Source: an uncultured Clostridia bacterium
GTDB taxonomy: Bacteria > Bacillota > Clostridia > Christensenellales > CAG-314
Direction of reading: 5' to 3'
Assembly: GCA_944364615.1 (NCBI GenBank)
Contig: CALVWF010000001.1
Coordinates: 65,840-129,839 of the forward strand
Length of the DNA stretch: 64,000 nt
Numbering within the stretch: position 1 is the first letter of the stretch; each line of letters opens with the position of its first letter. Made by a program: the position numbers and the translations under genes. The notes below the pieces were generated by a model. The model saw nothing but the letters and a program-made list of their open reading frames with translations. It made no database searches and was not told where the DNA came from. This document shows positions 7,037 through 62,578 of this stretch, in pieces.

Positions 7037-8530
7037 TTATTTCAACGCGCTGTCAAGAAACTGCTCGAAAGCGGTCTGTCCCTGTTCGTCGGGTTTGAAC
7101 ACCGCCGTGTTGTACAGAATGTTTTTGCACACATCATCCACATACGCTCTTACGACGGCCTTGGCGTGTTCGGGCGTATTGGAATTACCGTTGTCGGCAA
7201 GCAGTTTGTCAATCATGTCGCCGTGTATCCGCATGTCGGAAGCAAGCGACGTTCTGTCGTAAGGCTCGCCGCACAGGTAACCTTCCACTTCTTTGAGTTG
7301 TCTGTCCAGACGTGCGGGCAAAACGAACAGTCCCATTGCTTCTATAAGTCCGATACCTTCGCTCTTTATGTTGTGGTACTGCTTGTGCGCGTGGAAAATT
7401 CCGTCGGGATATTCTTCGGAAACTCTGTTGTTGCGGAATATGATGTCCAGTATATACGTATCGCCATGCTTTCTTGCAATGGGAGCGAATATATTGTGTC
7501 TTTCGCCGTCGGTGTGAGAAATTATGTCAAGTTGCGCGTTGTCGTAATTTTCCCAGGCACAACTCAACTTCCACGCCAGTTTTTCAATGGCCTTGCGGTC
7601 GGCAGATTGAAGTCTGACCGCACTGTTGTACCAGTCAAGAATCTGCACTTCCACTCCGTCCGTCACTCCAAGGCTTTTTCTTGCATCCGCCTTCTGCATC
7701 GGCAAAACTTCCTTACCGCCCTGATAATGGTCGTGATTGAGTATCGAACCGCCCACTCTCGGCAAAGCGGCATTGCTTCCGAGAAAATAGAAGGGGAACT
7801 GATCCACGAAATCGAACAGACGCGGTACGGTGCGGTCCGTAAGGTTCATCGGTACATGATTGTAGTTTACCGCAATTCCGTGCTGATAAAAGTAGGCGTA
7901 AGGGGAAAACTGCCAGAACCACTTCTGTCCGTCCAGCGTAATGTTCGCCCAGCGCAAAGTCTGTCTTACGGTGTTGCCCGAACAATAGCCGATGTTTTCC
8001 GCGCACAACTGACAGGCAGGGTAACCCGTCTTGACGGCAGTAAGCAACTTGGCAATTTGTTTGTTGTCTTTTTCGGGTTTGGAAAGGTTGATTGTGATGA
8101 CAAGTCCGTCCTTACTTACCCACTTGATGTTGCGCGCTATTGCCGACGCTTTTACGTAGTCGTTTGCTATTCCGTAGGCGTGCAGATCGTTCATTGCCTT
8201 TTCGTAACCGTGGCGTCTGCCTTCTGCATGAAAACGTCTGTCAATTTCCGACGGGCGCAGACTGAGCAATGACAGTATATCTGCCGAAAACTTTTCGCTG
8301 TCGCCGTTGTCGCTGCCGTTTTGCTTGGCGAATTCAAGCAACGGCTTCATTACGTTGTCGGGATTGGTGTCGGAAATACGTCTTTTCTTCAACTTTTCCG
8401 TTGTGCCCTGCGCTCCTATCATGGACAAGACTCTGTTGTAGTAATACAGCGAGTCTTTTTTGTCGACGCCGAGATTTTTCTGCGCGTAAACGATAAGATC
8501 GTAAACTTTCTGCTGAATGGTGATTGCCAT
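7037..8530 (-). CDS. galT: UDP-glucose--hexose-1-phosphate uridylyltransferase (GalT, long Firmicutes type)
   Basis: 497-aa ORF. FSPYAYFYQHGIAVNYNHVPM and GGSILNHDHYQGG motifs typical of family-2 GalT. Confidence 0.9.
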   Translation of the reverse strand: MAITIQQKVYDLIVYAQKNLGVDKKDSLYYYNRVLSMIGAQGTTEKLKKRRISDTNPDNVMKPLLEFAKQNGSDNGDSEKFSADILSLLSLRPSEIDRRFHAEGRRHGYEKAMNDLHAYGIANDYVKASAIARNIKWVSKDGLVITINLSKPEKDNKQIAKLLTAVKTGYPACQLCAENIGYCSGNTVRQTLRWANITLDGQKWFWQFSPYAYFYQHGIAVNYNHVPMNLTDRTVPRLFDFVDQFPFYFLGSNAALPRVGGSILNHDHYQGGKEVLPMQKADARKSLGVTDGVEVQILDWYNSAVRLQSADRKAIEKLAWKLSCAWENYDNAQLDIISHTDGERHNIFAPIARKHGDTYILDIIFRNNRVSEEYPDGIFHAHKQYHNIKSEGIGLIEAMGLFVLPARLDRQLKEVEGYLCGEPYDRTSLASDMRIHGDMIDKLLADNGNSNTPEHAKAVVRAYVDDVCKNILYNTAVFKPDEQGQTAFEQFLDSALK

Positions 8531-8562
8531 ACTTTTCCTCCGTAAAATTAACCTCTGATTAT

Positions 8563-9222
8563 TTATTGCTGTTGATCCCTGTATCTGTTGATGACGGCGG
8601 ACACCGTGTCGTAATCGTATCCGCGCGACAACAGATGACGCTGCAATCTGACGAGAGTCGCAGTGTCGTTGGGCTTGTTTTTCATAAATTTGTCTGCTAC
8701 CGCATTGGCGTTGTCACGGGCGTAGCCGTCCTCCTGACTGCCGAAACGCAGGGCAATTTCCGTCAAGATGCCCTTCTGTCGCAACTCGTTTACTATGCGA
8801 CGTTGTCCGCGCGTTTTTCCGAACTGCTCGGCGTAAAGACGCGCGTATCTTGCGTCGTCTATATAGCCGTATTCACGCAATTTGTCCGCGACGCTGTCTA
8901 CCGTGTCCGAATCGTAGCCTTTGGACGAAAGAAACTTCTTTAACTGTTCCTCCGTGCGCATGGCGCGGGAAAGATATTCGACCGCCTTGGCAAACGCGCT
9001 TTCCCGTTCGCTGTCCGACAGCGCTTCTCTTAAACGTTCCTCCGAAATTTCCATGCCTGTTTTAAGACCGTTGCGCACCACCGAAATGGCCTCCGCTCCG
9101 CGCAGAAACTCACCGTCAACGTATATGTTGACTCGGTTTTTGTTGTTTTTCTGAACTTGAATGTCTGTAATTCGCGGCATCTTTTTTCCCTTAAAACGTT
9201 GTTCGGAAGGGGACTGCGTCAA
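8563..9222 (-). CDS. recX: Recombination regulator RecX
   Basis: 219-aa ORF (TTG start). ITDIQVQKNNKNRVNIYVDGEFL head and repeated helical modules. An alternative ATG start at 9180 (MPRITDIQ) is possible. Confidence 0.75.
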   Translation of the reverse strand: MTQSPSEQRFKGKKMPRITDIQVQKNNKNRVNIYVDGEFLRGAEAISVVRNGLKTGMEISEERLREALSDSERESAFAKAVEYLSRAMRTEEQLKKFLSSKGYDSDTVDSVADKLREYGYIDDARYARLYAEQFGKTRGQRRIVNELRQKGILTEIALRFGSQEDGYARDNANAVADKFMKNKPNDTATLVRLQRHLLSRGYDYDTVSAVINRYRDQQQ

Positions 9223-9265
9223 CCTTTCTCCGACATTGCAATTATATCACAGACTTTAAATATTT

Positions 9266-9649
9266 TCAACCGTGTAACTGTCTGTATTTTTCCACCGCTT
9301 CCTGATATTTGGCGGAAAGTTTCATCAGGTAGGTCTGACGCTGATAGGCGTTGAGCGTACTCATATACTGTTTGTCGGCAAGCAGACTTATAGGATTTGC
9401 CACCGTCTGTTTGCTTGTAAGTATTTCCTCTACCTTACGCTGAAACTGTTGCTCTCTGTTGTACCCCTCGCTGTCGTATATCAGACGTTCCAACTGTCTG
9501 TGCTGTTGCTGACGTACGGCATTGCAGTCCAGTCCTTTGGTGACCGCGACCTGCTTTTCCGTTTCCAGACGCAGACGTGTCTGCTCCCAGAAACCGCTTT
9601 TCATTCTCTCCTTGGCTTGACGTGCGAACTTCTTAAAGGTATCTTTCAC
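9266..9649 (-). CDS. Hypothetical protein (127 aa)
   Basis: C-terminal part of track ORF 9266-9952. GTG 9649-9647 preceded by AGGAGGGAG. The N-terminal 100 codons of the track ORF overlap rpsU in another frame and are discarded. No family recognised. Confidence 0.5.
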   Translation of the reverse strand: MKDTFKKFARQAKERMKSGFWEQTRLRLETEKQVAVTKGLDCNAVRQQQHRQLERLIYDSEGYNREQQFQRKVEEILTSKQTVANPISLLADKQYMSTLNAYQRQTYLMKLSAKYQEAVEKYRQLHG

Positions 9650-9675
9650 TGTTGCTCCCTCCTGTGTCTTTGCAT

Positions 9676-9711
9676 AAAAAATAAACTGCCTGTTCAGCAG
9701 AACAAGCAGTT
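9676..9711 (-). terminator. Rho-independent terminator after rpsU
   Basis: Minus strand AACTGCTTG-N10-CAGGCAGTT (one G-U pair) followed by TATTTTTT. Confidence 0.65.
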
Positions 9712-9734
9712 TTATCTTTAGTGAAAATACTTTA

Positions 9735-9914
9735 TCAGTTCTTAGAATTACGTTTTCTTGCCGCTTCGGCCTTCTTCTTACGACGAACGCTGGGCTTTTC
9801 GTAATGTTCCTTCTTGCGGAGGTCACCGATGATGCCGTCTCTGGCGCATCTTCTCTTGAATCTACGCAATGCGCTGTCCAAAGTTTCGTTTTCACCAACT
9901 CTGATTGTAGACAT
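9735..9914 (-). CDS. rpsU: 30S ribosomal protein S21
   Basis: Own translation: [59 protein letters not shown] (59 aa, below the track cutoff). GGAGG RBS at 9921-9926. TGA stop 9735-9737. Confidence 0.93.
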
Positions 9915-9979
9915 GTTCTCGCCTCCTTCCCCGCAATCGGGACAAACTGCAATTTTCCTTTCGGGAAAATCTAATGAAT

Positions 9980-10008
9980 ATTTTACTCAATGACACCCTA
10001 TTTGTCAA
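9980..10008 (-). promoter_or_regulatory. Sigma-A promoter of rpsU
   Basis: Minus strand TTGACA (10008-10003), 17-nt spacer aatagggtgtcattgag, TAAAAT (9985-9980). Confidence 0.6.
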
Positions 10009-10047
10009 CGGTTTGTAAACAAAAAAGCAAACTAAATTGCAAGGCGA

Positions 10048-10452
10048 TTATTTCATTCTCAGAGCCTCGTGTAGCGCTTTGAGGTCGACGCCCAGTTTTT
10101 CTCTTGCAGGCCACAGATCCACTCCGTCGTCGGACTTGCGGGGAAGTATGTGCACGTGGAAATGCATCACGCTTTGTCCGGAACATTCTCCGCTGTTGTT
10201 GATGACGTTGACTCCCTGAAATCCGCAGTCTTCGACATAATGACGGGAAATCTTCTGTACGGCGTGCATTACCGCGTTCAATGTCTGACTGTCGCAGTCG
10301 AGAATGTTGGTGCAATGCTGCTTGCTGACTACCAGCGTGTGACCGTAGTAGTCCTCGGCAATGTCCAGAAAAGCAAACACTTTGTCGTCTTCGTAAATTT
10401 TAAACGAGGGAATATCCCCTTTGATGATTTTGCAAAAAATACAATCTGTCAT
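10048..10452 (-). CDS. HIT family (histidine triad) protein
   Basis: 134-aa ORF. CIFCKII head and histidine triad HFHVHILPR. Confidence 0.9.
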   Translation of the reverse strand: MTDCIFCKIIKGDIPSFKIYEDDKVFAFLDIAEDYYGHTLVVSKQHCTNILDCDSQTLNAVMHAVQKISRHYVEDCGFQGVNVINNSGECSGQSVMHFHVHILPRKSDDGVDLWPAREKLGVDLKALHEALRMK

Positions 10453-11681
10453 AACAAATCTCCTTTTACACCGTCTTTATAAAGTTCCTTGGCAATCACT
10501 TTTACCGTCTGTCCTTCCGTGGCGTTTCCCTTGAAGTACACTCTTGTGTAATTGCGGGAATAGCCCTCCCACATTCCGTTTCTTGACCGTTCCGCAAGCA
10601 CTTCTTCCGTCTTGCCTATCTGCGAATTGAGAAAATCGCTTTTGAGTTTGCGCTTGATTTCGCCCAGACGCTCGGCACGCAGATGTTTGACTTCCGCAGG
10701 AGTGTCCTCCCAACGTGACGCCACAGTACCCTTGCGCGCGGAATAGGGGAAAACGTGTATATCCGCAAACCCTATCTGCTCCACAAACCTGCACGTTTGC
10801 TCGAATTCCTCTTCCGTTTCGCCGCAGAAACCGACTATAACGTCCGTTGTAAAGGCTGCGTCGGGAAAATAACCTCGTATCAGTCTGACGCCGTCGGCAA
10901 ACTGTTGCGCGGTATAATGTCTGTTCATTCGCTTTAAAACGCTGTCGCTTCCGCTTTGCAACGACAGGTGAAAATGAGCACAGAAGTTCTTCCTTTTAAG
11001 ACTTTCCAACACGTCTTCCGTCAGTGCGCTTTCTTCCAGACTGCCCAGACGGTAACGCTTGTCGTCAGGCAATGCGTCAAACAACTGTGCCAGAGAAGTG
11101 CCGTTGTCACGGCCGAACTGAGTGATGTCTATACCTATCAGCACCACTTCTTCGGACGTAGCCTGCCGTACTTCATTCACAATGTCCTCTATTTTACGAC
11201 TGCGACTTCTTCCTCTGAGATAGGGGACTATACAGTAACTGCAAAAGTTGTTGCATCCGTCCTGTATTTTTATAAAACTTCTTGTACGCTGTCCGTCGGC
11301 AAACAGCGTTTCGCTGTACCTGTCGGACGGCGGACAGATGCCTACGCCTGCATTTTCCAGTATATCCGCGACATCGGTCTTGCCTTCCGTACCTTTAATG
11401 AAGGTGACGTTGTCCAGATTTTCAAACTGCGTTGCGTTGTTCTGCGAAGCACAGCCCATCACCACGATTCTGCAATCGGGATTGAGTTTCCTCGCCCTTG
11501 CCACCGCCTGACGAGATTTTCTTTCCGCTTCTGCCGTGATGGCGCAGGTATTCAACACGAATATGTCCGCCTTTTCAAGCCCTTCCGACGCGTCGTGTCC
11601 CAGTTGTTTCAATGCCGCGACTATCTGCTGACTTTCGTAAAAATTGGTCTTGCAACCCAATGTAAATACACTGATTTTCAT
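10449..11681 (-). CDS. mtaB: tRNA t6A37 methylthiotransferase MtaB (radical SAM)
   Basis: 410-aa ORF. UPF0004 N-domain, radical SAM CNNFCSYC, C-terminal TRAM-like region. Follows rsmE as in the Bacillus dnaK operon. Confidence 0.85.
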   Translation of the reverse strand: MKISVFTLGCKTNFYESQQIVAALKQLGHDASEGLEKADIFVLNTCAITAEAERKSRQAVARARKLNPDCRIVVMGCASQNNATQFENLDNVTFIKGTEGKTDVADILENAGVGICPPSDRYSETLFADGQRTRSFIKIQDGCNNFCSYCIVPYLRGRSRSRKIEDIVNEVRQATSEEVVLIGIDITQFGRDNGTSLAQLFDALPDDKRYRLGSLEESALTEDVLESLKRKNFCAHFHLSLQSGSDSVLKRMNRHYTAQQFADGVRLIRGYFPDAAFTTDVIVGFCGETEEEFEQTCRFVEQIGFADIHVFPYSARKGTVASRWEDTPAEVKHLRAERLGEIKRKLKSDFLNSQIGKTEEVLAERSRNGMWEGYSRNYTRVYFKGNATEGQTVKVIAKELYKDGVKGDLL

Positions 11682-12409
11682 TATTTTGTCCTGCCGAGTA
11701 TTCCGTCCGTCAAAGACAGTACGTAAAGCGGAGCGGTCTCCGCACGCAAAATGCGTTTGCCCAGAGTAACGGCCGTAGCGCCCGCATCAACTGCCGCCTG
11801 CGCCTCCTCGGGAGAAAATCCTCCTTCGCTTCCTACAATTATTGCGATGTTTTTTACCGGTTTCGAATCCAGCACGTCAAACACAGTACCTTCACGCTGA
11901 TTTTCGTAGCAAAACAACGCAATGTCGTAATTTTTCAATTCTTCCGTCAATCGGGCAAAGTTACAACGGCTGACTTGTACCGCAATCGCTCTTCCGCACT
12001 GTTTGGAGGCTTCCAGCGCAATACGGTTAAGCCTTTCCAGTTTTTTGTCATCACACTCTCCTACGGTATAACGGCTGTCAAACAGCACTACGCGGTTTAC
12101 TCCCAGTTCCACCGCTTTCTGTACTACAAAGTCGTTTTTGTCCCCTTTGCAAACGCCGAAATAAAGCGTGGTCAAGTACCCGTTTTCCGCGGAGGAAACT
12201 CGGCTTTCTTCTATACGCAAGACCACACTTTTGCCGTCGATGTTTTCCACTACCGACAAATGTTCCCATCCGTCGTTGAAACAAATCACCGCTTTGTCAC
12301 CCGCTTTCATTCGCAAGACTCTTGCCATATGGTGATATTCGCTTGTGACGTTGACTATGTCGCCCTGCCGTTCTTCGGGCAGCGCAAAAAATCTTCGTAT
12401 CTGACTCAT
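11681..12409 (-). CDS. rsmE: 16S rRNA (uracil1498-N3)-methyltransferase RsmE
   Basis: 242-aa ORF. HHMARVLRMKAGD head, IIVGSEGGFSPEE and LGKRILRAETA C-terminal motifs. Confidence 0.88.
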   Translation of the reverse strand: MSQIRRFFALPEERQGDIVNVTSEYHHMARVLRMKAGDKAVICFNDGWEHLSVVENIDGKSVVLRIEESRVSSAENGYLTTLYFGVCKGDKNDFVVQKAVELGVNRVVLFDSRYTVGECDDKKLERLNRIALEASKQCGRAIAVQVSRCNFARLTEELKNYDIALFCYENQREGTVFDVLDSKPVKNIAIIVGSEGGFSPEEAQAAVDAGATAVTLGKRILRAETAPLYVLSLTDGILGRTK

Positions 12410-13314
12410 AAACGTTTAAGCAGAAGGGCTGTCCATTCGCCCTCCGTAGTACTTTTGATCCCGGTAAATCCCTGACGGGCGAAAGCCTGTTCCACCTTGT
12501 CCGCTCTGTCGTTGAGAATACCGGACAATACAAGTCTGCCACCGGGAAGAGTCACGCTGCCTATTCCCTCCGCCAACAAATACAAGATGTCCGCCGTGAG
12601 ATTGGCGAAAACTACGGGAAACCGTCCCTTGACGTCTTTGGCAAGATCGCCGCAGATAATCTCGCATCTGTCTTCCAGTCCGTTGAGACGTGCATTTTCC
12701 AGCGTCGCTTCCGTAGCCTGTGAGTCTATGTCGGTAAACACCGCACGACTTGCGCCTTTGAGCAGTGCCGACAGTCCGAGTATACCGCTGCCGCACCCCA
12801 CGTCCAGCACTTCCTGTCCGCAGACATCCGCTTCGTCGATTAGTTTAATGCACATAGAAGTAGTTTCGTGCTGACCTGTTCCGAATGCCGTACCGCTGTC
12901 CAGATACAATACCGGCAATCCTTTCTGACTGTCATCGGGTGTAAGCCATCGGGGACACACGACGATGCCTCCTATCGTCATCGGGCGGAAGGTCTTCTTC
13001 CAGTTGTTTAACCACATCTCCCCGTCCACTTCTTCCACGGAAATTTCAAGACTTCCGGCGTCGGTAAGCGAACAAAGCGCACCTTTAAGATAGTCGAGCG
13101 CCGATTGCACGTCTTCGTTGTTGCAATATCCCTTGACCAAAACTTCGTCGCCGTAAACGTCCGTTGCGCTTTCGTCGGCGTAATCCCACGACGCGTTGTC
13201 GAAATCCTTGCGATCGTAGATGCTTACTCCGTCCATACAACATTCCTGCAAAAAATACGCCACAAGTTCGCTTGTGGCTGTGTTTGTACTAATTGTAATC
13301 TGTGAATATTTCAT
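12406..13314 (-). CDS. prmA: Ribosomal protein L11 methyltransferase PrmA
   Basis: 302-aa ORF. SAM motif VLDVGCGSGILG, FGTGQHETT. Confidence 0.9.
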   Translation of the reverse strand: MKYSQITISTNTATSELVAYFLQECCMDGVSIYDRKDFDNASWDYADESATDVYGDEVLVKGYCNNEDVQSALDYLKGALCSLTDAGSLEISVEEVDGEMWLNNWKKTFRPMTIGGIVVCPRWLTPDDSQKGLPVLYLDSGTAFGTGQHETTSMCIKLIDEADVCGQEVLDVGCGSGILGLSALLKGASRAVFTDIDSQATEATLENARLNGLEDRCEIICGDLAKDVKGRFPVVFANLTADILYLLAEGIGSVTLPGGRLVLSGILNDRADKVEQAFARQGFTGIKSTTEGEWTALLLKRL

Positions 13315-13322
13315 ATGTAAGC

Positions 13323-13646
13323 TCAGTTAATCAGTATGTCAATAAGTTTTTTGGCGTTTTCCCATTCACGCTTGTTTACCAGATACAACGCCCTGCCACG
13401 TTCGGTGATAGTATAGTATTTGCGTGTAGCACCGACGTTTTCCCCCCACGAACCTTTGATACATTCCATATCTTCCAGACGGTGATAAGCCGAATACAGA
13501 CTCTGTTCGTTGGGAACATACAGATTGTCTGTTTTTTTGGCAATGAACTTGCGTATCTCGTTGCCGTATTTAGTTCCGTCCATCAACGCCGACAACACGA
13601 AAGTGTCGATGTGCCCGCGAAGCAGATCGCTTGAAATTACCTTCAT
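13323..13646 (-). CDS. PadR family transcriptional regulator
   Basis: 107-aa ORF. LLRGHIDTFVLSALMDGTKYGNEIRKFI...YSAYHRLEDMECI...RKYYTITERGR. Confidence 0.85.
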   Translation of the reverse strand: MKVISSDLLRGHIDTFVLSALMDGTKYGNEIRKFIAKKTDNLYVPNEQSLYSAYHRLEDMECIKGSWGENVGATRKYYTITERGRALYLVNKREWENAKKLIDILIN

Positions 13647-57342: not shown

Positions 57343-58296
57343 CTATTCGACGGTAATATAGCGACCTCTTCCCTTGATTTTGTCTGCCGAGTACTTGCAA
57401 CCGCATTTGTCTCCGAAGTAAAGCAACTTTAACGAGTCCGCAAAAGGCTTTCTGAACACCACTGCATTGCCTTTTTTACCCAGTTCCAGAAGCAGAGTGA
57501 ATATTTCGGAGTCAGCAGGATGCCAGTGCGTGGAGTAACTTTTGCCGCCTATACATGCGAAGAATTCAAGAACACATTCCGAATCGACATATACGTATAA
57601 TGTAAAACCGTCAAAATTCCAGACAAGCGTGTCGCCGTCGACGCTGTACTTTCCACCGAGGTCGGGAACGCTTTCCAACATTTCGTACAACTGCCGTGCG
57701 TTACGTGGTACAAAAGGCTCAACGCATTGGTAACGTGGATCGAATGCATGCAGGTAACCTGCCGTAAGTACTATCGATTCGGGCAAAACCCGCCCGACGG
57801 TAAACGTTTCGTCAAACAACGAGCAATCGAGCAGAACCTTGACGGTAAAATCAGCCGTCAGACCGCCGTCGAGTAAAGCGATTCTGAACTGTAACCATTG
57901 ATCGAACTCCATAGATGAATCCTTTTCGTCGTATTTTCCCCGCCTTACAATCATGCACTTACCATTTTCGCCAAAGGACAAAAAGTCAAAATCGGGAAAA
58001 ATGTATAAATCGCCTCCGTACAAAAAATAACTGCGACTTGTATTCCTGTGAAAAACGCATTGTACGGAAAGATCGCGCTGTCTGACGCCTTTATAAAACA
58101 TGTATTGCGGCGAATAAGTTACGTTACTTTTATACGGTATGTGAAATTGTTTGTAATAATCGCTTCTCCTATATTGTACCGCCTCGGCAAGGGACGCAAA
58201 AGGGAAAATAAACGCAATGAAAACAAATGCAACAACTATTATCGGAAAACACACAATAAACATCAACACATACAGTAAGACTTTATACCATTTCAT
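57343..58296 (-). CDS. Hypothetical membrane-anchored protein
   Basis: ORF 57343-58350 trimmed to MKWYKVLLYVLMFIVCFPIIVVAFVFIAFIF (ATG 58296 behind AAAGGAAG). One N-terminal TM region then about 270 aa with no motif I recognise. Confidence 0.55.
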   Translation of the reverse strand: MKWYKVLLYVLMFIVCFPIIVVAFVFIAFIFPFASLAEAVQYRRSDYYKQFHIPYKSNVTYSPQYMFYKGVRQRDLSVQCVFHRNTSRSYFLYGGDLYIFPDFDFLSFGENGKCMIVRRGKYDEKDSSMEFDQWLQFRIALLDGGLTADFTVKVLLDCSLFDETFTVGRVLPESIVLTAGYLHAFDPRYQCVEPFVPRNARQLYEMLESVPDLGGKYSVDGDTLVWNFDGFTLYVYVDSECVLEFFACIGGKSYSTHWHPADSEIFTLLLELGKKGNAVVFRKPFADSLKLLYFGDKCGCKYSADKIKGRGRYITVE

Positions 58297-58944
58297 ATTC
58301 TCGCACTTCCTTTCATTAATTAAAACACAAAAAAAATTATTTTGCAACATTATGTCAATGAGATGTTGCTTTGCCCCTTTCAGCGTTTGAAAAAGCGTGA
58401 CGGTATCGACAGATTGTAATGAAAAAGCGACAATGCTTCAAGCGTCAGAAGTGTACGGAAACAGTCTGTTGCAGGTTTTAAGTCGACGATAAATCTTCTT
58501 CCTATTACTGCGGTAACGCACGACTTTTTTTAAAACGTTTTCCGGCACATTGGTGCACGACGACACTTCAAACGTTACGCAACCGACAACACACAACCCC
58601 GAAACAAAAACGGAAAGCCAAAAGATTTAAAACCGACAAACCGTATTTTAATTCAAAAAATACGTTGAAACGTATGGTAAAAGCATACGACAGTAAACGG
58701 GCTCGGTAAGGTCAGATTCTTTCGGTAAATAATTATTGTGCAAATGAAATACGAAAAACATTCAAACGCAAAAACCGCAAAAGTGTGCCTCGACTGACCG
58801 CCTGTGCACTGCATAAACACACCAATACCTGACTTACAACCGATGTGCAGGATACAGCAATACCGCTCTCAGTAAGAGCGGTACGCATTGAATACCGTTA
58901 AATGCAGAACAAAGGCTGTTTGCAACCACAAAACGATTCAATAG

Positions 58945-58973
58945 AAAAAGGGCGCATTGTGTGCGCCCTTTTT
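58945..58973. terminator. Bidirectional terminator at the left edge of the AT-rich island
   Basis: aaaaaGGGCGCA-ttgtg-TGCGCCCttttt. About 90 nt downstream of the NTase-like gene on the minus strand. Confidence 0.85.
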
Positions 58974-59006
58974 AATCGATTTGTTTTTGTGCTATCGCTT
59001 TAATAC

Positions 59007-59066
59007 AAAATGACACCCCTACTTGCAAAACGACACCCTTACTAGATAAACGAAACCCCTAAATTA
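59007..59066. repeat. Left-end array: three tandem 20-bp repeats
   Basis: aaaatgacacccctacttgc / aaaacgacacccttactaga / taaacgaaacccctaaatta (16/20 and 13/20 identities between neighbours). The last unit overlaps the stop codon of the NTase-like gene. Confidence 0.8.
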
Positions 59067-59726
59067 AGACTTTTTTCTATGATTGTATCGATCATAAACT
59101 TCGTTAACTGCTTCGATATAACAAATAAACGATGGATGATTATAATCATTTCTTGTTAAATACATATTTTTCTTATTTAAGTACCCTTCTCTTACTTCAT
59201 TCCAATAGTTATGGTTTTTAAGCCAATCAACTTTTTTATTTAAATTATATGAATTACGTCCTTCATTCCAAATCCAGACATCATTGCGTGTATTACCAGT
59301 TTTCTGATGAATTAGTCTCCACCATGAGCCATTTGAATCTTCAACAACGATTCCTAAGTCAATGCTAAATCTTGTCTTATTTCCACTTGTAAAATTTCGA
59401 TTTTCAGTAGTTAAAGCAGACGTAGAATCTTGGCAATCACCCCATCCATTTCTGTTTAAGATTACATTAAACTTTTTCCTTATATATTCTTTGATTCCTT
59501 GACAATCATTAATATTCCAAGAACGAATAATAGAAATATTGTAATCTAAATCAACTGGTTCAAATTCGTTTTGAGTTTCTAAATTTCTAGAACCACTGCC
59601 AACACTATGTGCCACAACTATCATCTTGCCTTCGTTATTAATTTCTTGAACCAACTGATTAACTAAATTAGAGCAAACTGATCTTAACTTCTTTAGAAAT
59701 TCTTTATCTTCTATATAATGATACAT
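59064..59726 (-). CDS. Pol-beta-superfamily nucleotidyltransferase-like protein (220 aa)
   Basis: GGAGG RBS. hGS at G43-S44 (HSVGSGSR), DxD at D59/D61 (PVDLDYNI) and a third acidic strand FSIDLGIVVED (D123), in the spacing of minimal NTase folds. W/N/Y-rich helical C-terminal half. Family not identified. Confidence 0.55.
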   Translation of the reverse strand: MYHYIEDKEFLKKLRSVCSNLVNQLVQEINNEGKMIVVAHSVGSGSRNLETQNEFEPVDLDYNISIIRSWNINDCQGIKEYIRKKFNVILNRNGWGDCQDSTSALTTENRNFTSGNKTRFSIDLGIVVEDSNGSWWRLIHQKTGNTRNDVWIWNEGRNSYNLNKKVDWLKNHNYWNEVREGYLNKKNMYLTRNDYNHPSFICYIEAVNEVYDRYNHRKKS

Positions 59727-59801
59727 ACTTAAAAACCTCCTAAATAAATATTATCCCCATGCCTACCATTTGAAGTATGTATCTTTTCTTCAAATCCTAT
59801 T

Positions 59802-59830
59802 ATTATACATTTCAATTACCAATTTGTCGA
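59802..59830 (-). promoter_or_regulatory. Sigma-A promoter of the NTase-like gene
   Basis: Minus strand TCGACA (59830-59825), 17-nt spacer, TATAAT (59807-59802). Confidence 0.6.
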
Positions 59831-59884
59831 TGGTTATCGTTCATTTTCATTATTTCAATGATTTCACATTAAAACTTGAAATGC

Positions 59885-59925
59885 AAAAAAACGCACGAAA
59901 TGACACTAAATCACTTCAATGCGTT
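59885..59925 (-). terminator. Rho-independent terminator after the 2-TM gene
   Basis: Minus strand AACGCA-tt-GAAgTGA-loop-TCAtTTC-g-TGCGTT followed by TTTTT. Separates the NTase-like gene from the upstream pair. Confidence 0.65.
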
Positions 59926-60029
59926 TATATTTGTTATCAATGTAATTATTTAAACCGAAATCACTATTATTATTTCTTATTGGAAGTATACTAAATTTTA
60001 ATTTAAGAAAGATAACTATAATTTCAATT

Positions 60030-60500
60030 CTATCTATAAAGTACAACAATTTTAGGATCTGACAAATCTTGTTCTCTAACAAAGCATTCTGCGTAATCTC
60101 CAACTTGATATGAAGTAAAATATTTTGAGAATATTCTATATACAAATCTAATTCTAACTTTTTTATTTAAATTATCTGTTTCGATTTTTCCATACATTAC
60201 ACTACCTATGGATCTTTCTAGGATTTTAACATGAATCAATTTTCCTTTTGAATTAATAAATGGCAAAAATCTATATAGATATATAATCAAAGAAGCAATA
60301 AAACAAATAGCAAACAATACATCTATCAATATTAGAACACTAAATATTTCATTAACTGCTTCTTGATTAGCATTTGTGGAATCAAAAGACTTTAAATAAA
60401 ATATCAAGCATAAAAAGCAAATAAATGTTATTAGTTGAATTGCTAAGGAAATAATCATCCAATAAAAACCGTACATTCTTTTAATATTGAATTTTTCCAT
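60030..60500 (-). CDS. Two-TM protein with small beta-rich C-terminal domain
   Basis: 156-aa ORF. TM1 about residues 10-36 and TM2 about 52-79, then about 75 aa of alternating beta-like sequence ending YQVGDYAECFVREQDLSDPKIVVLY. GGAG RBS inside the upstream gene's end. Confidence 0.6.
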   Translation of the reverse strand: MEKFNIKRMYGFYWMIISLAIQLITFICFLCLIFYLKSFDSTNANQEAVNEIFSVLILIDVLFAICFIASLIIYLYRFLPFINSKGKLIHVKILERSIGSVMYGKIETDNLNKKVRIRFVYRIFSKYFTSYQVGDYAECFVREQDLSDPKIVVLYR

Positions 60501-60502
60501 AT

Positions 60503-61039
60503 TTAAACTCCATATTTATAATTTATGTTTCCAACAACCATACTACCACGGTTATTCGTGTTGTTAACATAGTTTGTTCTTATAATGAATCTTATCTTTG
60601 TAGCGCCAGATTCGAATACATCTACATAATTTGTTAGGTTATCTTTATTAGTTGACATCTCTTTTGGATTAAAAATTCTTTTGGTTTTCCAACCATTATT
60701 ATAATATTCTAAAGTAATTGAACTTTTTTTAATAAGTGATTCATCATCACTCCAAAGGGCAATATTGTAATTGAATTCAAAAATACTAACATTTTCATCA
60801 ATCAAGTTTTCTTCTTCAATTTCAACTTCTTCTTTTTCCTGTGGAATATAATTATCAATATAAGACATACTTGATAAATTTTCCACATCATTACCTTTTG
60901 TAAGTTTTAATAGCTTTTTATCAACAACAACTTCCTGGGAATTATAAAACCCCTTATTAAAAGTCGATAATGTGCTAGAGGATACAATTCCCATTCCTAA
61001 AATCATTAAAAGAACCAATTTTTTTAAATGTTTTTTCAT
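60503..61039 (-). CDS. Secreted or membrane-anchored protein with acidic linker and beta-rich C-terminal domain
   Basis: 178-aa ORF. Signal/anchor MKKHLKKLVLLMILGMGIVSSS, acidic stretch QEKEEVEIEEENLIDEN, then Asn/Tyr-rich domain. Stop lies 2 nt before the next start. Confidence 0.55.
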   Translation of the reverse strand: MKKHLKKLVLLMILGMGIVSSSTLSTFNKGFYNSQEVVVDKKLLKLTKGNDVENLSSMSYIDNYIPQEKEEVEIEEENLIDENVSIFEFNYNIALWSDDESLIKKSSITLEYYNNGWKTKRIFNPKEMSTNKDNLTNYVDVFESGATKIRFIIRTNYVNNTNNRGSMVVGNINYKYGV

Positions 61040-61080
61040 TAATAAAACCTACTATGTCTTGGTTAGTCGGACCTAACTAA

Positions 61081-61108
61081 AGTATACTACTTCCTTTTTA
61101 TATGTCAA
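61081..61108 (-). promoter_or_regulatory. Sigma-A promoter of the secreted-protein/2-TM pair
   Basis: Minus strand TTGACA (61108-61103), 16-nt spacer, TATACT (61086-61081). Confidence 0.55.
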
Positions 61109-61159
61109 TAATTCTAATAGTGATTTCACATTGGAATATAAAAAACAAATTCATTTAAC

Positions 61160-61339
61160 TCACAAAAAATTAGAAATTATAAGCATTGGATACTCTTGCT
61201 CCAATAATGACTTAACACCGTACTGATTGTCAGAAACTTCCTTATCGTGAATTTGTGCCTCCTCCCCGAAAATGCCAATTACTCCGTGGGAATGTTTATG
61301 CTGTTCAGTTAATCTCTTCGATTGATTCTTTTTTGCCAT
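61160..61339 (-). CDS. Small hypothetical protein (59 aa)
   Basis: Track ORF 61160-61357 trimmed to MAKKNQSKRL (ATG 61339, GAGGTG 6 nt upstream). The longer form starts at an ATG overlapping the HTH stop by 1 nt. No family recognised. Confidence 0.4.
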   Translation of the reverse strand: MAKKNQSKRLTEQHKHSHGVIGIFGEEAQIHDKEVSDNQYGVKSLLEQEYPMLIISNFL

Positions 61340-61356
61340 TCTCTTCACCTCATTCA

Positions 61357-61551
61357 TTAATTATCTAGTTTCATGCCAATCTCGTTAAAGAGAACGACAA
61401 ATTTCTTCTTGGTATCCATAGTTGGTTCAAATCTACCTGTTTCCCATCTACAAACGGAAACATAACTAACATTTAATATTTTAGCTAGTTCTTCCTGTGT
61501 TAAGCATTTTCTTTCACGGTATTCTTTTATTTTCTTTGCATAATCAAACAT
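61357..61551 (-). CDS. XRE family HTH protein (Cro/CI-like, 64 aa)
   Basis: LTQEELAKILNVSYVSVCRWETGRFEP HTH_3 pattern. GAGGTG RBS. Confidence 0.8.
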   Translation of the reverse strand: MFDYAKKIKEYRERKCLTQEELAKILNVSYVSVCRWETGRFEPTMDTKKKFVVLFNEIGMKLDN

Positions 61552-61650
61552 ATGGTCACCTCAAATGGTTATCATTATTTTAACACAAACAAGTTTAAGT
61601 TTCGATATTTTCATGCAGCTTTGATGAGATTTTTTCTCAAAAAGAGTGAG

Positions 61651-61749
61651 TTGAAAATGGGGTGTCATTTATATAGTAGGGTATCGTTTATCTAGTAGAC
61701 TAACGTTTCTCTAGTAAGGGTATCGTTTATCTAGTAGGACTAAAATCTT
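61651..61749. repeat. Right-end array: five tandem 19-21-bp repeats, inverted relative to the left array
   Basis: ttgaaaatggggtgtcattta / tatagtagggtatcgttta / tctagtagactaacgtttc / tctagtaagggtatcgttta / tctagtaggactaaaatctt. Unit 4 (61710-61729) matches the reverse complement of left unit 2 at 18/20. Confidence 0.8.
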
Positions 61750-61835
61750 AAATTCCGTAGGTTCGAACCAATTCATATCTACTAGCAAAACGCAATTTAT
61801 AAAAAAATGCCCGATTTCTCGGACAAATATCGTTA

Positions 61836-61855
61836 ATTTTGACACCCTTACTTTG
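61836..61855. repeat. Solitary repeat copy in left-array orientation, 23 nt from the tRNA 3' end
   Basis: attttGACACCCTTACTttg. The 12-mer GACACCCTTACT (61841-61852) is identical and co-oriented with 59032-59043. Confidence 0.75.
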
Positions 61856-61877
61856 TATCAAAATGTTAGTTATAAGA

Positions 61878-61953
61878 TGGTGCTGGCGAGAGGATTCGAA
61901 CCTCCGGCCTATTGATTACGAATCAATTGCTCTACCGACTGAGCCACGCCAGC
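61878..61953 (-). tRNA. tRNA-Thr (anticodon CGU), CCA encoded
   Basis: Manual fold of GCTGGCGTGGCTCAGTCGGTAGAGCAATTGATTCGTAATCAATAGGCCGGAGGTTCGAATCCTCTCGCCAGCACCA. 7-bp acceptor, U8, D arm GCTC/GAGC, anticodon stem ATTGA/TCAAT with loop TTCGTAA, T arm GGAGG-TTCGAAT-CCTCT (one G-U), discriminator A. Confidence 0.9.
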
Positions 61954-62029: not shown

Positions 62030-62578
62030 TTATTTGTCAATGTCATTCACGGTGCTTTTATACCGTTGTTCCAGGTCGGCAAGAAATTTTTCCGCCTCCT
62101 TAGGACGTCTGAATGTGACAAGATCGAGGTGCTCGGCATGCAGTTGCAACTGTCCGACCAGATAAGGTCGTACATTGCGCCGAAAGTTGTATATGTATTT
62201 AAGAAAGTAGCCGTCCAGTTTTTCCTTACAGCCGTGAGCGATGTCGTAACGCTGTTTGCCGTGAAAACGTATTCTGCGTTTGATTGCACGCATCATACAA
62301 ACGCGTCTCGGGTAATCGAGAAAAAACACTGCGGTGGCACGCTCTATACGTTCGGCAACGTGACTGCGCCACATACCGTCTATTATCCATTGCGAGTTGC
62401 CGATTATTCCGTCGTGTATTTCTTTACGTTGCGAGTAATCCATCATCTGCCAGTCAGGCAACCACAGTAACTTGTCAAGGTGGATGACTTCCCTTCCGAG
62501 AATTTTGCCCAGACGAGTAGCGAATGTCGTTTTACCGCTTCCGGGACAACCCACCACCATTATTCTGTCGGAATTCAT
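62030..62578 (-). CDS. P-loop NTPase, adenylate-kinase-like (topology modulation/FlaR-type family)
   Basis: 182-aa ORF. IMVVGCPGSGKTTFATRLG Walker A. Start overlaps smpB stop (4 nt). Confidence 0.65.
   Translation of the reverse strand: MNSDRIMVVGCPGSGKTTFATRLGKILGREVIHLDKLLWLPDWQMMDYSQRKEIHDGIIGNSQWIIDGMWRSHVAERIERATAVFFLDYPRRVCMMRAIKRRIRFHGKQRYDIAHGCKEKLDGYFLKYIYNFRRNVRPYLVGQLQLHAEHLDLVTFRRPKEAEKFLADLEQRYKSTVNDIDK

Follow-up and report, generated by a model that had tools for sequence, protein, structure and literature searches.

A recombinase-less island behind a tRNA-Thr gene and its relatives at the CCA ends of tRNA and tmRNA genes

Closest described systems and the island at tRNA-Thr(CGU)

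Serine recombinases act at sites with a central asymmetric dinucleotide and palindromic arms, which share no further identity and give a fixed orientation. In the staphylococcal cassette chromosome (SCC) and pseudo-SCC elements of staphylococci, the large serine recombinases (LSRs) are CcrA and CcrB, attB lies at the 3' end of rlmH, and some cassettes have no recombinase. Here we analyze an island of 2.9 kb that lies directly behind the gene for tRNA-Thr(CGU) in a stretch of 64,000 nt from an uncultured Clostridia bacterium (contig CALVWF010000001.1 of assembly GCA_944364615.1, forward-strand positions 65,840 to 129,839; this whole stretch is called the window, and positions are counted from its first letter). 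The island probably belongs to a family of integrative elements found in low-G+C gut Bacilli-type bacteria, as a recombinase-less member that, with no LSR of its own, can only be non-autonomous. The family, which spans whole prophages to 135-bp miniatures consisting of the two element ends (head plus tail), is apparently undescribed. More tentatively, and with somewhat less than even confidence, we propose that this is a paired-serine-recombinase family with a generic attachment site, for which any CCA-encoding tRNA or tmRNA gene could be a landing pad, and that its members build tandem SCC- or integron-like stacks of exchangeable defense or accessory cassettes, the recombinase-less ones being moved in trans.

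The family resembles SCC in its paired LSRs, its insertion at the very 3' end of a conserved gene that stays intact, the conservation of only the gene-side half of attB, the tandem arrays with recombinase-less cassettes, and the accessory or defense cargo. It differs from SCC in that its LSRs are not Ccr orthologs (135-166 bits against 900), in that it targets many tRNA and tmRNA CCA ends and not rlmH alone, and in that it has autonomous prophages, arrays of 19-20-bp units at its ends, and elements down to 135 bp; in the island, neither Ccr orthologs nor integration at the rlmH 3' end is found. With the serine-integrase phages phiC31, Bxb1, A118, and SPbeta, the family has in common an apparent 2-bp crossover, an imperfect palindromic attP of ~50-60 bp, an integrase gene near att at the prophage end, and accessory genes between integrase and att. 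These phages, however, use one specific attB, usually in a protein gene, whereas the attB of the family would be a generic feature of RNA genes, and the family has two tandem recombinase genes and accessory repeat arrays. The island is also similar to cis-mobilizable elements (CIMEs) in that it has functional-looking attL and attR sites and no recombinase, appears to have arisen by internal deletion, and may be mobilizable in trans, but CIMEs derive from tyrosine-integrase integrative and conjugative elements, while the parent of the island would be a serine-recombinase prophage or island. By analogy, the island would work like a pseudo-SCC or CIME-type cassette, that is, as att sites without a recombinase.

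The island was delimited by presence/absence polymorphism among public assemblies found through the exact SmpB protein of the window, a sample in which the same chromosomal neighborhood was returned many times. The segment is absent in six displayed places (L002, L003, and L005-L008) and present at 99.9-100% identity in three (L001, L004, and L010), and L009 is occupied by a copy with an internal deletion of window 60636-61524; when the places listed as similar are counted in, roughly one in two of the species' sampled contigs is occupied. The flanks are 98-99.5% identical between occupied and empty sites, and the tRNA-Thr(CGU) sequence is the same in both. With the junction marked by a slash, an empty site reads ...GCCAGCACCA/AATCGATTAAAAAGGGCGC..., while an occupied site reads ...GCCAGCACCA/TCTTATAAC... 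on the tRNA side and ...GCACAAAAACA/AATCGATT... on the far side. The empty CCA/AATCG is therefore replaced by CCA/TCTT... and ...AAACA/AATCG, and CA is the sole sequence common to both junctions. These reads define the inserted DNA as window 58984-61877 (2,894 bp) plus one ambiguous CA, with the distal junction at 58983/58984 set by the six empty sites. The insertion lies outside the tRNA gene, between tRNA-Thr and its own terminator (58945-58973), and the far junction shows no duplicated tRNA segment and no repeat beyond CA. In empty sites this terminator starts 8 nt past CCA; it is the ancestral terminator of tRNA-Thr, stands outside the island, and was moved 2.9 kb by the insertion. Exact-protein look-ups found the nucleotidyltransferase (NTase) and XRE proteins of the island at this one locus only, indicating that the host acquired the island once.

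An earlier reading of the window, made from its letters alone (hereafter the sequence-only reading), had suggested a presence/absence comparison at the tRNA-Thr/smpB locus, and the six empty and four occupied sites with their exact junctions now bear on several of its claims. The horizontal acquisition that it proposed is supported by the precise polymorphism amid near-identical flanks. Its tRNA border holds, the tRNA being called by ARAGORN and Rfam, whereas its distal border, drawn at the terminator 58945-58973, has to be moved to 58983/58984. The sharp drop in G+C is real (0.284 in window 58984-61877 against 0.469 for the remaining window, with a profile that falls from ~0.45 to 0.23-0.33 across roughly 58.9-61.9 kb). 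Its statement that the island has no recombinase agrees with Pfam and NCBIfam, which give no such match there, and the inverted arrays of a 19-20-bp repeat that it noticed at both ends are present, as 4 + 3 + 1 units (Table 1).

The island begins at the tRNA with a non-coding head, the attL side, and ends in a tail, the attR side. The head contains a hairpin terminator whose stem is kept by paired base changes in other head copies (judged by eye and unscored); this hairpin would end the tRNA transcript, substituting for the displaced terminator. In an Rfam scan nothing but the tRNA passes the threshold, and the head thus corresponds to no known RNA. A homologous four-unit array occurs at the equivalent place in islands behind tRNA-Trp genes. 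The 19-20-bp units are found nowhere else in the 64 kb (matches in 0 of 100 shuffles) and not around solitary homologs of the NTase gene, indicating that the arrays belong to the element ends and not to the NTase gene.

The two ends also have the symmetry of an attachment site. When the tail arm is compared with the reverse-complemented head arm, 19 of 30 positions match in the window, a value reached by 13 of 100,000 shuffles, and 20 of 30 match in the family consensus. Tail and head joined via CA form an imperfect palindrome of ~60 bp, and such contiguous tail-CA-head junctions do occur in tandem arrays. As at LSR sites, only the dinucleotide is shared, and an attP with the ~50-bp imperfect inverted repeat is found; an LSR encoded by the element itself is absent from the island and present in L064 and L072-L077. 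Both attP arms carry TCAAA 16-20 bp from CA, and TTCRAN, which encodes the T-loop, stands in the same 16-20 register in 25 distinct targets (consensus gGTTC.A.TCc...CCA), whereas the attB sequence beyond CCA is arbitrary, the first base after CA varying in 19 tails. This shared register points to recognition of the T-loop plus CCA. Integration would be a serine-recombinase exchange at the CA dinucleotide, by a recombinase that reads the T-loop plus CCA and could hence use any CCA-encoding tRNA gene as attB.

Because the island adjoins a tRNA, we also weighed a tyrosine-integrase tRNA island or prophage remnant that has lost its integrase and in which the arrays are arm-type sites. Lambda-type arm sites are direct-repeat arrays in opposite orientation on either side of the attachment site, and the opposed arrays of the island resemble them. 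However, neither a direct repeat of the tRNA 3' segment nor an integrase gene is found, the insertion is outside the tRNA, attB and attP are identical over 2 nt where tyrosine integrases normally have 6-8, and no Phage_integrase domain occurs in the island or among the Pfam annotations seen for the family loci. Islander-type tRNA islands share with the family the tRNA and tmRNA landing sites and the tandem accretion at one tRNA, but their crossover falls within the tRNA gene, whose 3' part is replaced by a fragment that they bring along, and each integrase is specific for one tRNA, whereas the family inserts flush after CCA, duplicates nothing, and occupies many tRNA species. A tyrosine-integrase origin is accordingly extremely improbable. 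Two other candidates were rejected: an IS200/IS605- or Helitron-type insertion, since head and tail are inverted copies and no HUH domain is among the annotations seen, and host Xer recombination as in integrative mobile elements exploiting Xer (IMEX), since the targets are not dif sites.

Related elements at tRNA and tmRNA genes

The tRNA-Trp islands share with the island in the window a non-coding head that starts right after CCA (CCAT-N14-TTTGATACA-N7/8-GTGTCAA...) and continues with a T-run, the motif GGTTCGAAC, and a four-unit array of 20-bp period; at their far end, similar units in opposite orientation run up to ...CCA or ...ACA. The head motif was scanned against one genome per GTDB species with a pattern that forces CCA but not a tRNA end. 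This gave 24 loci, and in 20 of them the CCA of the motif is the 3' end of an ARAGORN-called tRNA or tmRNA; the remaining loci show acceptor-like or tmRNA-like ends, or they are located at contig edges. The targets are Arg-TCT, Arg-CCG, Glu-CTC, Leu-TAG (two), Leu-GAG (five), Leu-TAA, Ser-TGA, Gln-CTG, Ala-GGC, Trp (two), Met, Pro-TGG, and tmRNA (two). The hosts are metagenome-assembled genomes of uncultured gut Bacilli, Mollicutes, or Acholeplasmatales type, CAG:288, and CAG:449, the exceptions being one bin labeled Parabacteroides and two uncultured-bacterium bins without taxonomy. The host lineages of L034-L057 and L072-L074 are CAG:288, CAG:449, RF39, and Acholeplasmatales type. A scan with the tail, in which no CCA was required, likewise led to heads flush with tRNA-Leu(CAG), tRNA-Val, and tRNA-Leu(GAG). 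Heads abut the encoded CCA always in one orientation, and the genome of Clostridium sp. CAG:288 has elements behind two different tRNA genes (L052 and L055).

A head of the window type is near-identical over ~80 nt in 17 loci, with the hairpin terminator included, and the tail (three units plus TTTTGTATCAAAGCGATAGCACAAAGACA) is as conserved as the head. Complete head-to-tail elements measure 2.0-4.6 kb and comprise, besides the island in the window, L056, L058, L063, L053/L066, and L065. The 135-bp miniatures consist of no more than a head joined to the final tail unit and arm, and they lie in tandem directly after a full element (Table 1). In 8 of 19 distinct cases the DNA after the tail is another head, and in the rest it is unrelated DNA that mostly opens with a terminator hairpin, the arrangement that an insertion separating a tRNA gene from its terminator should leave. 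In L022, L026, and L052, the tRNA-Trp island is followed by a second, degenerate head (~8813-8990 in L022 and L026), which suggests repeated insertion at the same CCA, with the older copies pushed distally.

The left-end cargo of the relatives is mostly of restriction-modification (R-M) or defense type: hsdM, N4/N6 and C5 methyltransferases, Schlafen/AlbA_2, RhuM, and HipA-like genes. Head DNA has no match in PLSDB plasmids or INPHARED phages and the head pattern has none in IMG/VR; the family is unrepresented among phages or plasmids of cultured organisms. The low-G+C contig of L062, which also holds a 97% identical copy of the window's region with the NTase gene and the gene for the protein with two transmembrane segments (2TM), encodes a Cas9-type protein of 1291 aa with cas1- and cas2-like genes at 8465-13580, ~750 nt downstream of a tail-head junction.

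Serine recombinases, prophages, and the origin of the island

Relatives of the island do encode serine recombinases. L064, which was found without a recombinase query, carries two intact LSRs, 437 and 524 aa long, within 570 nt of a full tail. Each of them, LSR-A and LSR-B, has the Resolvase, Recombinase, and Zn_ribbon_recom domains, and upstream lie genes for a 133-aa HTH/zinc-ribbon protein (phrog_2308) and a 63-aa SHOCT protein. Other elements that were found by DNA pattern contain LSR fragments, namely L071 (87% identity), L067 (an A/B deletion hybrid), L043 (66%, beside the head), and L069, and L053 and L066 keep a 34-residue C-terminal LSR remnant. The tRNA-Trp island of L028/L029, which was found via the 2TM protein, carries the whole module at 41-55% identity; there (12003-13326), the LSR-A homolog is split in two ORFs, as a pseudogene, and LSR-B is intact. 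The unit arrays co-vary with this recombination module, in that different units go with LSR and HTH proteins that are 41-55% identical. A serine-recombinase element that seemed to be inserted in the NTase-like gene of L028, with a 21-nt inverted repeat, was rejected because the gene is full length.

LSR-B homologs of 77-92% identity lie at the right end of prophages with the order tape measure, Dit, tail genes, XhlA-like, HTH, SHOCT, LSR-A, LSR-B, and cargo. In L072, L073, and L074, which were retrieved via LSR-B, the cargo leads into a family tail, and the IMG/VR viral contigs L079 and L080 show LSR-B, cargo, and tail, followed by a host terminator. In L076 (77% LSR-B identity), there is no family tail within 2.3 kb past LSR-B. 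In L076 and L077, the phage tail-gene and LSR-A/LSR-B module (77% LSR-B identity) stands on contigs of 58.5% G+C, while all other members have 29-39%. Six elements (the island in the window, L066, L071, L072, L073, and L074) have the NTase-like gene as their final gene ahead of the tail. LSR-B matches PHROG 95, 'integrase', with E = 9e-143, and the best NCBIfam matches of both LSRs are CcrB, CcrC, and CcrA, the L064 proteins reaching 166 and 135 bits for CcrB against a cut-off of 900. A distant LSR in L081 (3818-4169; 46% identity, host of 52% G+C) lies 265 nt from the CCA of a tRNA-Leu(GAG) and reads toward it, and there, too, TTGATACA stands at the register that it has in the family heads, so the choice of target may predate the window-type family.

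The likely parent of the island can be traced to such a prophage end. In L074, LSR-B is followed by genes for a 718-aa secreted protein and a 156-aa 2TM protein, an NTase-like gene, and the tail. L074 DNA is 95-98.5% identical to window 61143-59856, and its positions 11612-11674, right after the LSR-B stop, are 92% identical to window 61182-61123, where the homology of the island to EcoRI ends. These identities suggest that the island is the left end of an element (head, array, XRE gene, and EcoRI-type start) joined by one deletion to the cargo slot past LSR-B; a second, internal deletion appears to have shortened the secreted protein, of 718 aa in L074, to 178 aa. The island may have arrived as a small circle moved by recombinases in trans, or it may be the one-deletion remnant of a whole prophage.

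If the attB is generic as we tentatively propose, this would explain why one element type is found at ~20 different tRNA and tmRNA loci and how recombinase-less cassettes and miniatures build up in tandem, and developers of integrase tools would be interested in two recombinases whose natural target is short and conserved universally. The family would then be the first serine-recombinase system known to us that uses as attB a structural feature common to all tRNA genes, the T-loop plus CCA, and not one specific gene. The literature searched, whose incomplete coverage makes this no proof of novelty, contains no account of a serine recombinase directed at the CCA ends of tRNA genes at large. In a survey of large serine recombinases (PMC10083194), the word tRNA is absent from the text.

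The same ends could be those of a non-autonomous DDE-type transposon, a miniature inverted-repeat transposable element (MITE) or Tn7/Mu-like element with 27-bp terminal inverted repeats, subterminal arrays as transposase-binding sites, a 2-bp CA duplication, and a target-selector protein that directs it to tRNA ends. The ends of Tn7, Mu, and Tn5053 have subterminal unit arrays in opposite orientation, which the opposed arrays of three to four units recall; the terminal arms are inverted repeats at 19-20 of 30 positions, CA flanks both ends, and the 135-bp head-plus-tail miniatures recall MITEs. Yet, apart from the subterminal arrays, the island lacks the marks of a Tn7- or Mu-like element, with no transposase domain and at most 2 bp duplicated. 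The ORFs of ~55 family loci, with Pfam checks on selected ORFs and on the precomputed gene tables, brought no DDE transposase to notice, whereas serine recombinases or their fragments recur beside the tail. The elements keep a single orientation toward the tRNA, as an asymmetric crossover dinucleotide would demand, and the unit at 61838-61857 is wrongly oriented for a symmetrical transposon end. We therefore hold a transposon of this kind to be very unlikely.

Several points weigh against the serine-recombinase family to which we assign the island. The 19-20-bp arrays have no known precedent at serine-integrase att sites, and this reading does not account for them. Known serine integrases use two half-sites, while here the right half of attB is arbitrary, and the CA might just as well be a 2-bp target duplication left by another type of enzyme. 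Searches by tblastn with the family recombinases revealed no recombinase or fragment of one in the island or the 64-kb window. No single contig holds tRNA, head, intact LSR pair, and tail together, the loci being too short; L028/L029 is closest to a complete element, but its LSR-A is broken and its tail is beyond the locus. Since the exact NTase and XRE proteins come from a single locus, they give no direct sign that this 2.9-kb unit moved more than once. The functions of the cargo, to which we now turn, rest on fold and position only.

Cargo genes as separable modules

The five minus-strand ORFs that the sequence-only reading had listed were all found in place (Table 1), and its proposal that they form one cassette is not supported: the five genes are separable modules, namely the XRE gene with a dead restriction-gene stub, the secreted and 2TM-OB proteins, and a solitary enzyme resembling the cGAS/DncV-like nucleotidyltransferases (CD-NTases). 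Of the remaining details in that reading, the terminator after the 2TM gene is borne out by its fold energy, the Pol-beta-type call for the 220-aa protein by the match of its AlphaFold model in Foldseek, and the lack of a match to a named defense system by PADLOC. The 59-aa ORF, in contrast, is not a gene of its own but the N-terminal 53 residues of an EcoRI-family nuclease, and the three sigma-A-like promoters were located as consensus matches only (11/12, 11/12, and 9/12).

Table 1. Features of the island, its borders, and the miniatures of related loci. Positions refer to the window unless a locus is named.
Feature	Position	Strand	Evidence or remark
Bidirectional terminator	58945-58973	both	-18 and -19.7 kcal/mol on the two strands; folds far better than shuffled sequence
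Distal CA	58982-58983		end of tail
Tail (attR side)	58982-59061	minus	nhmmer tail profile E = 9e-25; junction from empty sites
Tail inner arm	58984-59013	minus	pairs with head arm
Tail repeat units, three	59012-59070		opposite orientation to proximal array; overlap NTase stop codon
CD-NTase-like nucleotidyltransferase, 220 aa	59064-59726	minus	AlphaFold predicted local distance difference test (pLDDT) 91.5; GSG...DxD...D signature intact
Promoter-like site of NTase gene	59802-59830		consensus match only
Intrinsic terminator after 2TM gene	59885-59925	minus	-18.6 kcal/mol, z = -4.3
2TM protein, 156 aa, C-terminal OB-fold barrel (predicted)	60030-60500	minus	AlphaFold pLDDT 76
Signal-peptide protein, 178 aa	60503-61039	minus	probably a shortened form of the 718-aa L074 prophage protein
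Promoter-like site of secreted-protein gene	61081-61108		scan 11/12
EcoRI-family restriction endonuclease stub	61160-61357	minus	homology to EcoRI residues 1-53 spans 61181-61339
XRE/HTH_3 regulator, 64 aa, C-protein-like	61357-61551	minus	Pfam HTH_3 E = 1.4e-8
Promoter-like site of XRE gene	61577-61605		consensus match only
Proximal array, four 19-20-bp units (AGGGTATCGTTTATCTAGTAG)	61659-61737	plus	upstream of XRE gene; repeat family D1
GGTTCGAACC palindrome	61760-61769		spacer from head to array; T-loop-like; kept in both head types (head alignment)
Head (attL side)	61800-61877	minus	nhmmer head profile E = 3e-24; ~35 other loci match
Head hairpin terminator with U-run	61808-61825	minus	-10.1 kcal/mol, z = -3.0
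Single repeat unit in head	61838-61857		19-20-bp repeat
Head inner arm	61848-61877	minus	TCTTATAACTAACATTTTGATACAAAG...
CCA end of tRNA-Thr	61878-61880	minus	insertion point, attB left half
tRNA-Thr(CGU)	61878-61953	minus	ARAGORN; Rfam tRNA 76 bits; intact
Miniature in L053	L053 7781-7916	reverse	
Miniatures in L066	L066 10201-10336 and 10339-10472		

The first module recalls an R-M system of the EcoRI family with a C protein, in which a small HTH gene overlaps the start of the EcoRI-like R gene; here the two genes share an ATGA at 61357, and residues 1-53 align with EcoRI. The match is seen with Pfam EcoRI (1-38 of 257), with PADLOC REase_II (6-59 of 283, E = 1.4e-13), and with EcoRI in the PDB (E = 7e-11). 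The catalytic part is absent, unrelated sequence follows residue 53, and the deletion junction lies at ~61182/61183. Unlike an EcoRI-type system, the island is without ~80% of the R gene and has no methyltransferase ORF, so neither the intact endonuclease nor the methyltransferase of a type II system is found, and an XRE homolog that is 80% identical precedes a type I hsdM gene in L041. The second gene is the dead stub of a C-protein-controlled restriction gene, and the XRE protein would be a left-end regulator that formerly controlled it.

The second module consists of the secreted protein and the 2TM protein, neither of which has a family match in Pfam, PADLOC, PHROG, or NCBIfam. Compared with the 718-aa protein of L074, the 178-aa protein is 94% identical in its N-terminal 89 aa and 77% identical in its C-terminal 122 aa. 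The 2TM family has 27 homolog clusters only, and the L074 protein is 97% identical. The five-stranded barrel at the C terminus of the 2TM model has its best matches among IF1-type OB folds, and these are weak (Foldseek E = 2e-3, target-normalized template modeling (TM) score 0.75). Direct repeats of 29 nt (59859-59887 and 61121-61149; repeat family D2) stand on both sides of the gene pair, indicating that it is an insertion in its own right, and the terminator at 59885-59925 is embedded in one repeat copy. Matching flanking repeats of 105-130 bp are found in L026 (7382-7486 and 8551-8655), L028, and L074. These flanking repeats consist of the 3' end of the preceding ORF plus a terminator, the signature of insertion with duplication. 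Our best guess is that the two proteins are prophage accessory proteins that exclude incoming phage at the membrane, as in superinfection exclusion.

The third module is the 220-aa NTase. The top 50 PDB matches of its model in Foldseek are all CD-NTases, cGAS, or DncV (best E = 2.7e-6, query-normalized TM 0.45-0.55), and G43, D59, D61, and D123 are invariant or nearly so in the family. The predicted fold would thus make the protein CD-NTase-like; by any sequence criterion it is not a CD-NTase, and no sequence match was obtained in Pfam, NCBIfam, PHROG, or the PDB, even with a profile. The family, with >1000 clusters at 60-68% identity and ~600 at 50%, nearly all of 210-230 aa, has no Pfam model and is a widespread, uncharacterized one found at prophage ends. 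We take the protein, as a best guess, to be a separately expressed accessory enzyme.

That the five genes act together as one anti-phage or abortive-infection cassette, as the sequence-only reading had it, would be in keeping with the defense-type cargo of related elements listed above, and the secreted, 2TM, and NTase-like genes do recur together in the window, L074, and L062, and more loosely in L028/L029. However, PADLOC matches the nuclease stub and the HTH protein only, the small ORF has lost its catalytic part, each unit has its own predicted promoter and terminator, and the secreted-2TM pair is a repeat-flanked insertion. The NTase family is found solitary in unrelated contexts, beside rpsT and a tRNA (L011), between eutH and a 687-aa gene (L013-L018), and within the tail-gene module of a prophage (L019). 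L066 and L071-L073 have the NTase-like gene and no 2TM gene, and L022-L027 and L030-L033 have the 2TM gene and no NTase-like gene. In L022-L027, which are tRNA-Trp islands of other species, the 2TM gene comes with the XRE gene, the nuclease stub, and the secreted-protein gene, and in L030-L033 it stands entirely alone, near a Schlafen/AlbA_2 gene. The genes are also being lost within the host population: L009 is without the stretch from the XRE to the secreted-protein gene, and in L089 (9826-10395) the NTase is truncated to 189 aa. The cargo is eroding there. A five-gene system acting as a unit is thereby largely refuted already, and we judge it highly improbable. The island itself is an ordinary decaying remnant of a prophage-type element with three uncharacterized accessory genes and not a new defense system.

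A narrower alternative is a nucleotide-gated effector system of two or three genes similar to the cyclic-oligonucleotide-based antiphage signaling systems (CBASS) or Hailong, in which a nucleotide or oligonucleotide ligand made by the NTase is read by the OB fold of the 2TM protein, which controls membrane damage during infection. In common with these systems, the island has a Pol-beta fold of CD-NTase type, an intact catalytic GS...DxD...D site, and a membrane protein encoded nearby; the OB fold is a domain class that commonly binds oligonucleotides; and the two genes are neighbors in three independent lineages with 28-48% NTase identity. A precedent exists in Hailong, in which a transmembrane effector is kept shut by a ligand that its NTase makes constitutively (PMC13434031). 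On the other hand, the NTase of the window is ~100 residues shorter than those enzymes, has no sequence match to them, mostly stands alone, and shares no operon with the 2TM gene, from which a strong terminator and a promoter separate it; a CD-NTase recognized by a family hidden Markov model (HMM) together with an effector in the same operon, as in CBASS, is not found. Each of the two genes often occurs without the other, no HMM matches a CBASS or other effector, and the soluble domain of the 2TM protein is an OB fold, itself a weak match (E = 2e-3) in a model of pLDDT 76, rather than a known effector domain of CBASS or Hailong (HalA). Hailong joins a HalB-type NTase to a HalA-type transmembrane channel; here no PDB chain was matched by sequence, even with a profile at E <= 10, and neither Cap15 nor a Hailong entry is among the best 50 fold matches of either model. 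Taken together, a nucleotide-gated effector pair, which little more than the adjacency of the genes speaks for, appears unlikely, and we favor separable accessory modules.

In L086, L090, and L091, contigs break at the equivalents of the window's 2TM or secreted-protein genes, consistent with near-identical copies of this cassette elsewhere in the metagenomes, for example in prophages. Two neighboring genes outside the island are kept in empty and occupied strains alike: one at 62030-62578 for a 182-aa AAA_18 kinase-like protein, with a 4-nt overlap with smpB, and one at 57343-58350 for a membrane-anchored protein of 317/335 aa that belongs to no family.

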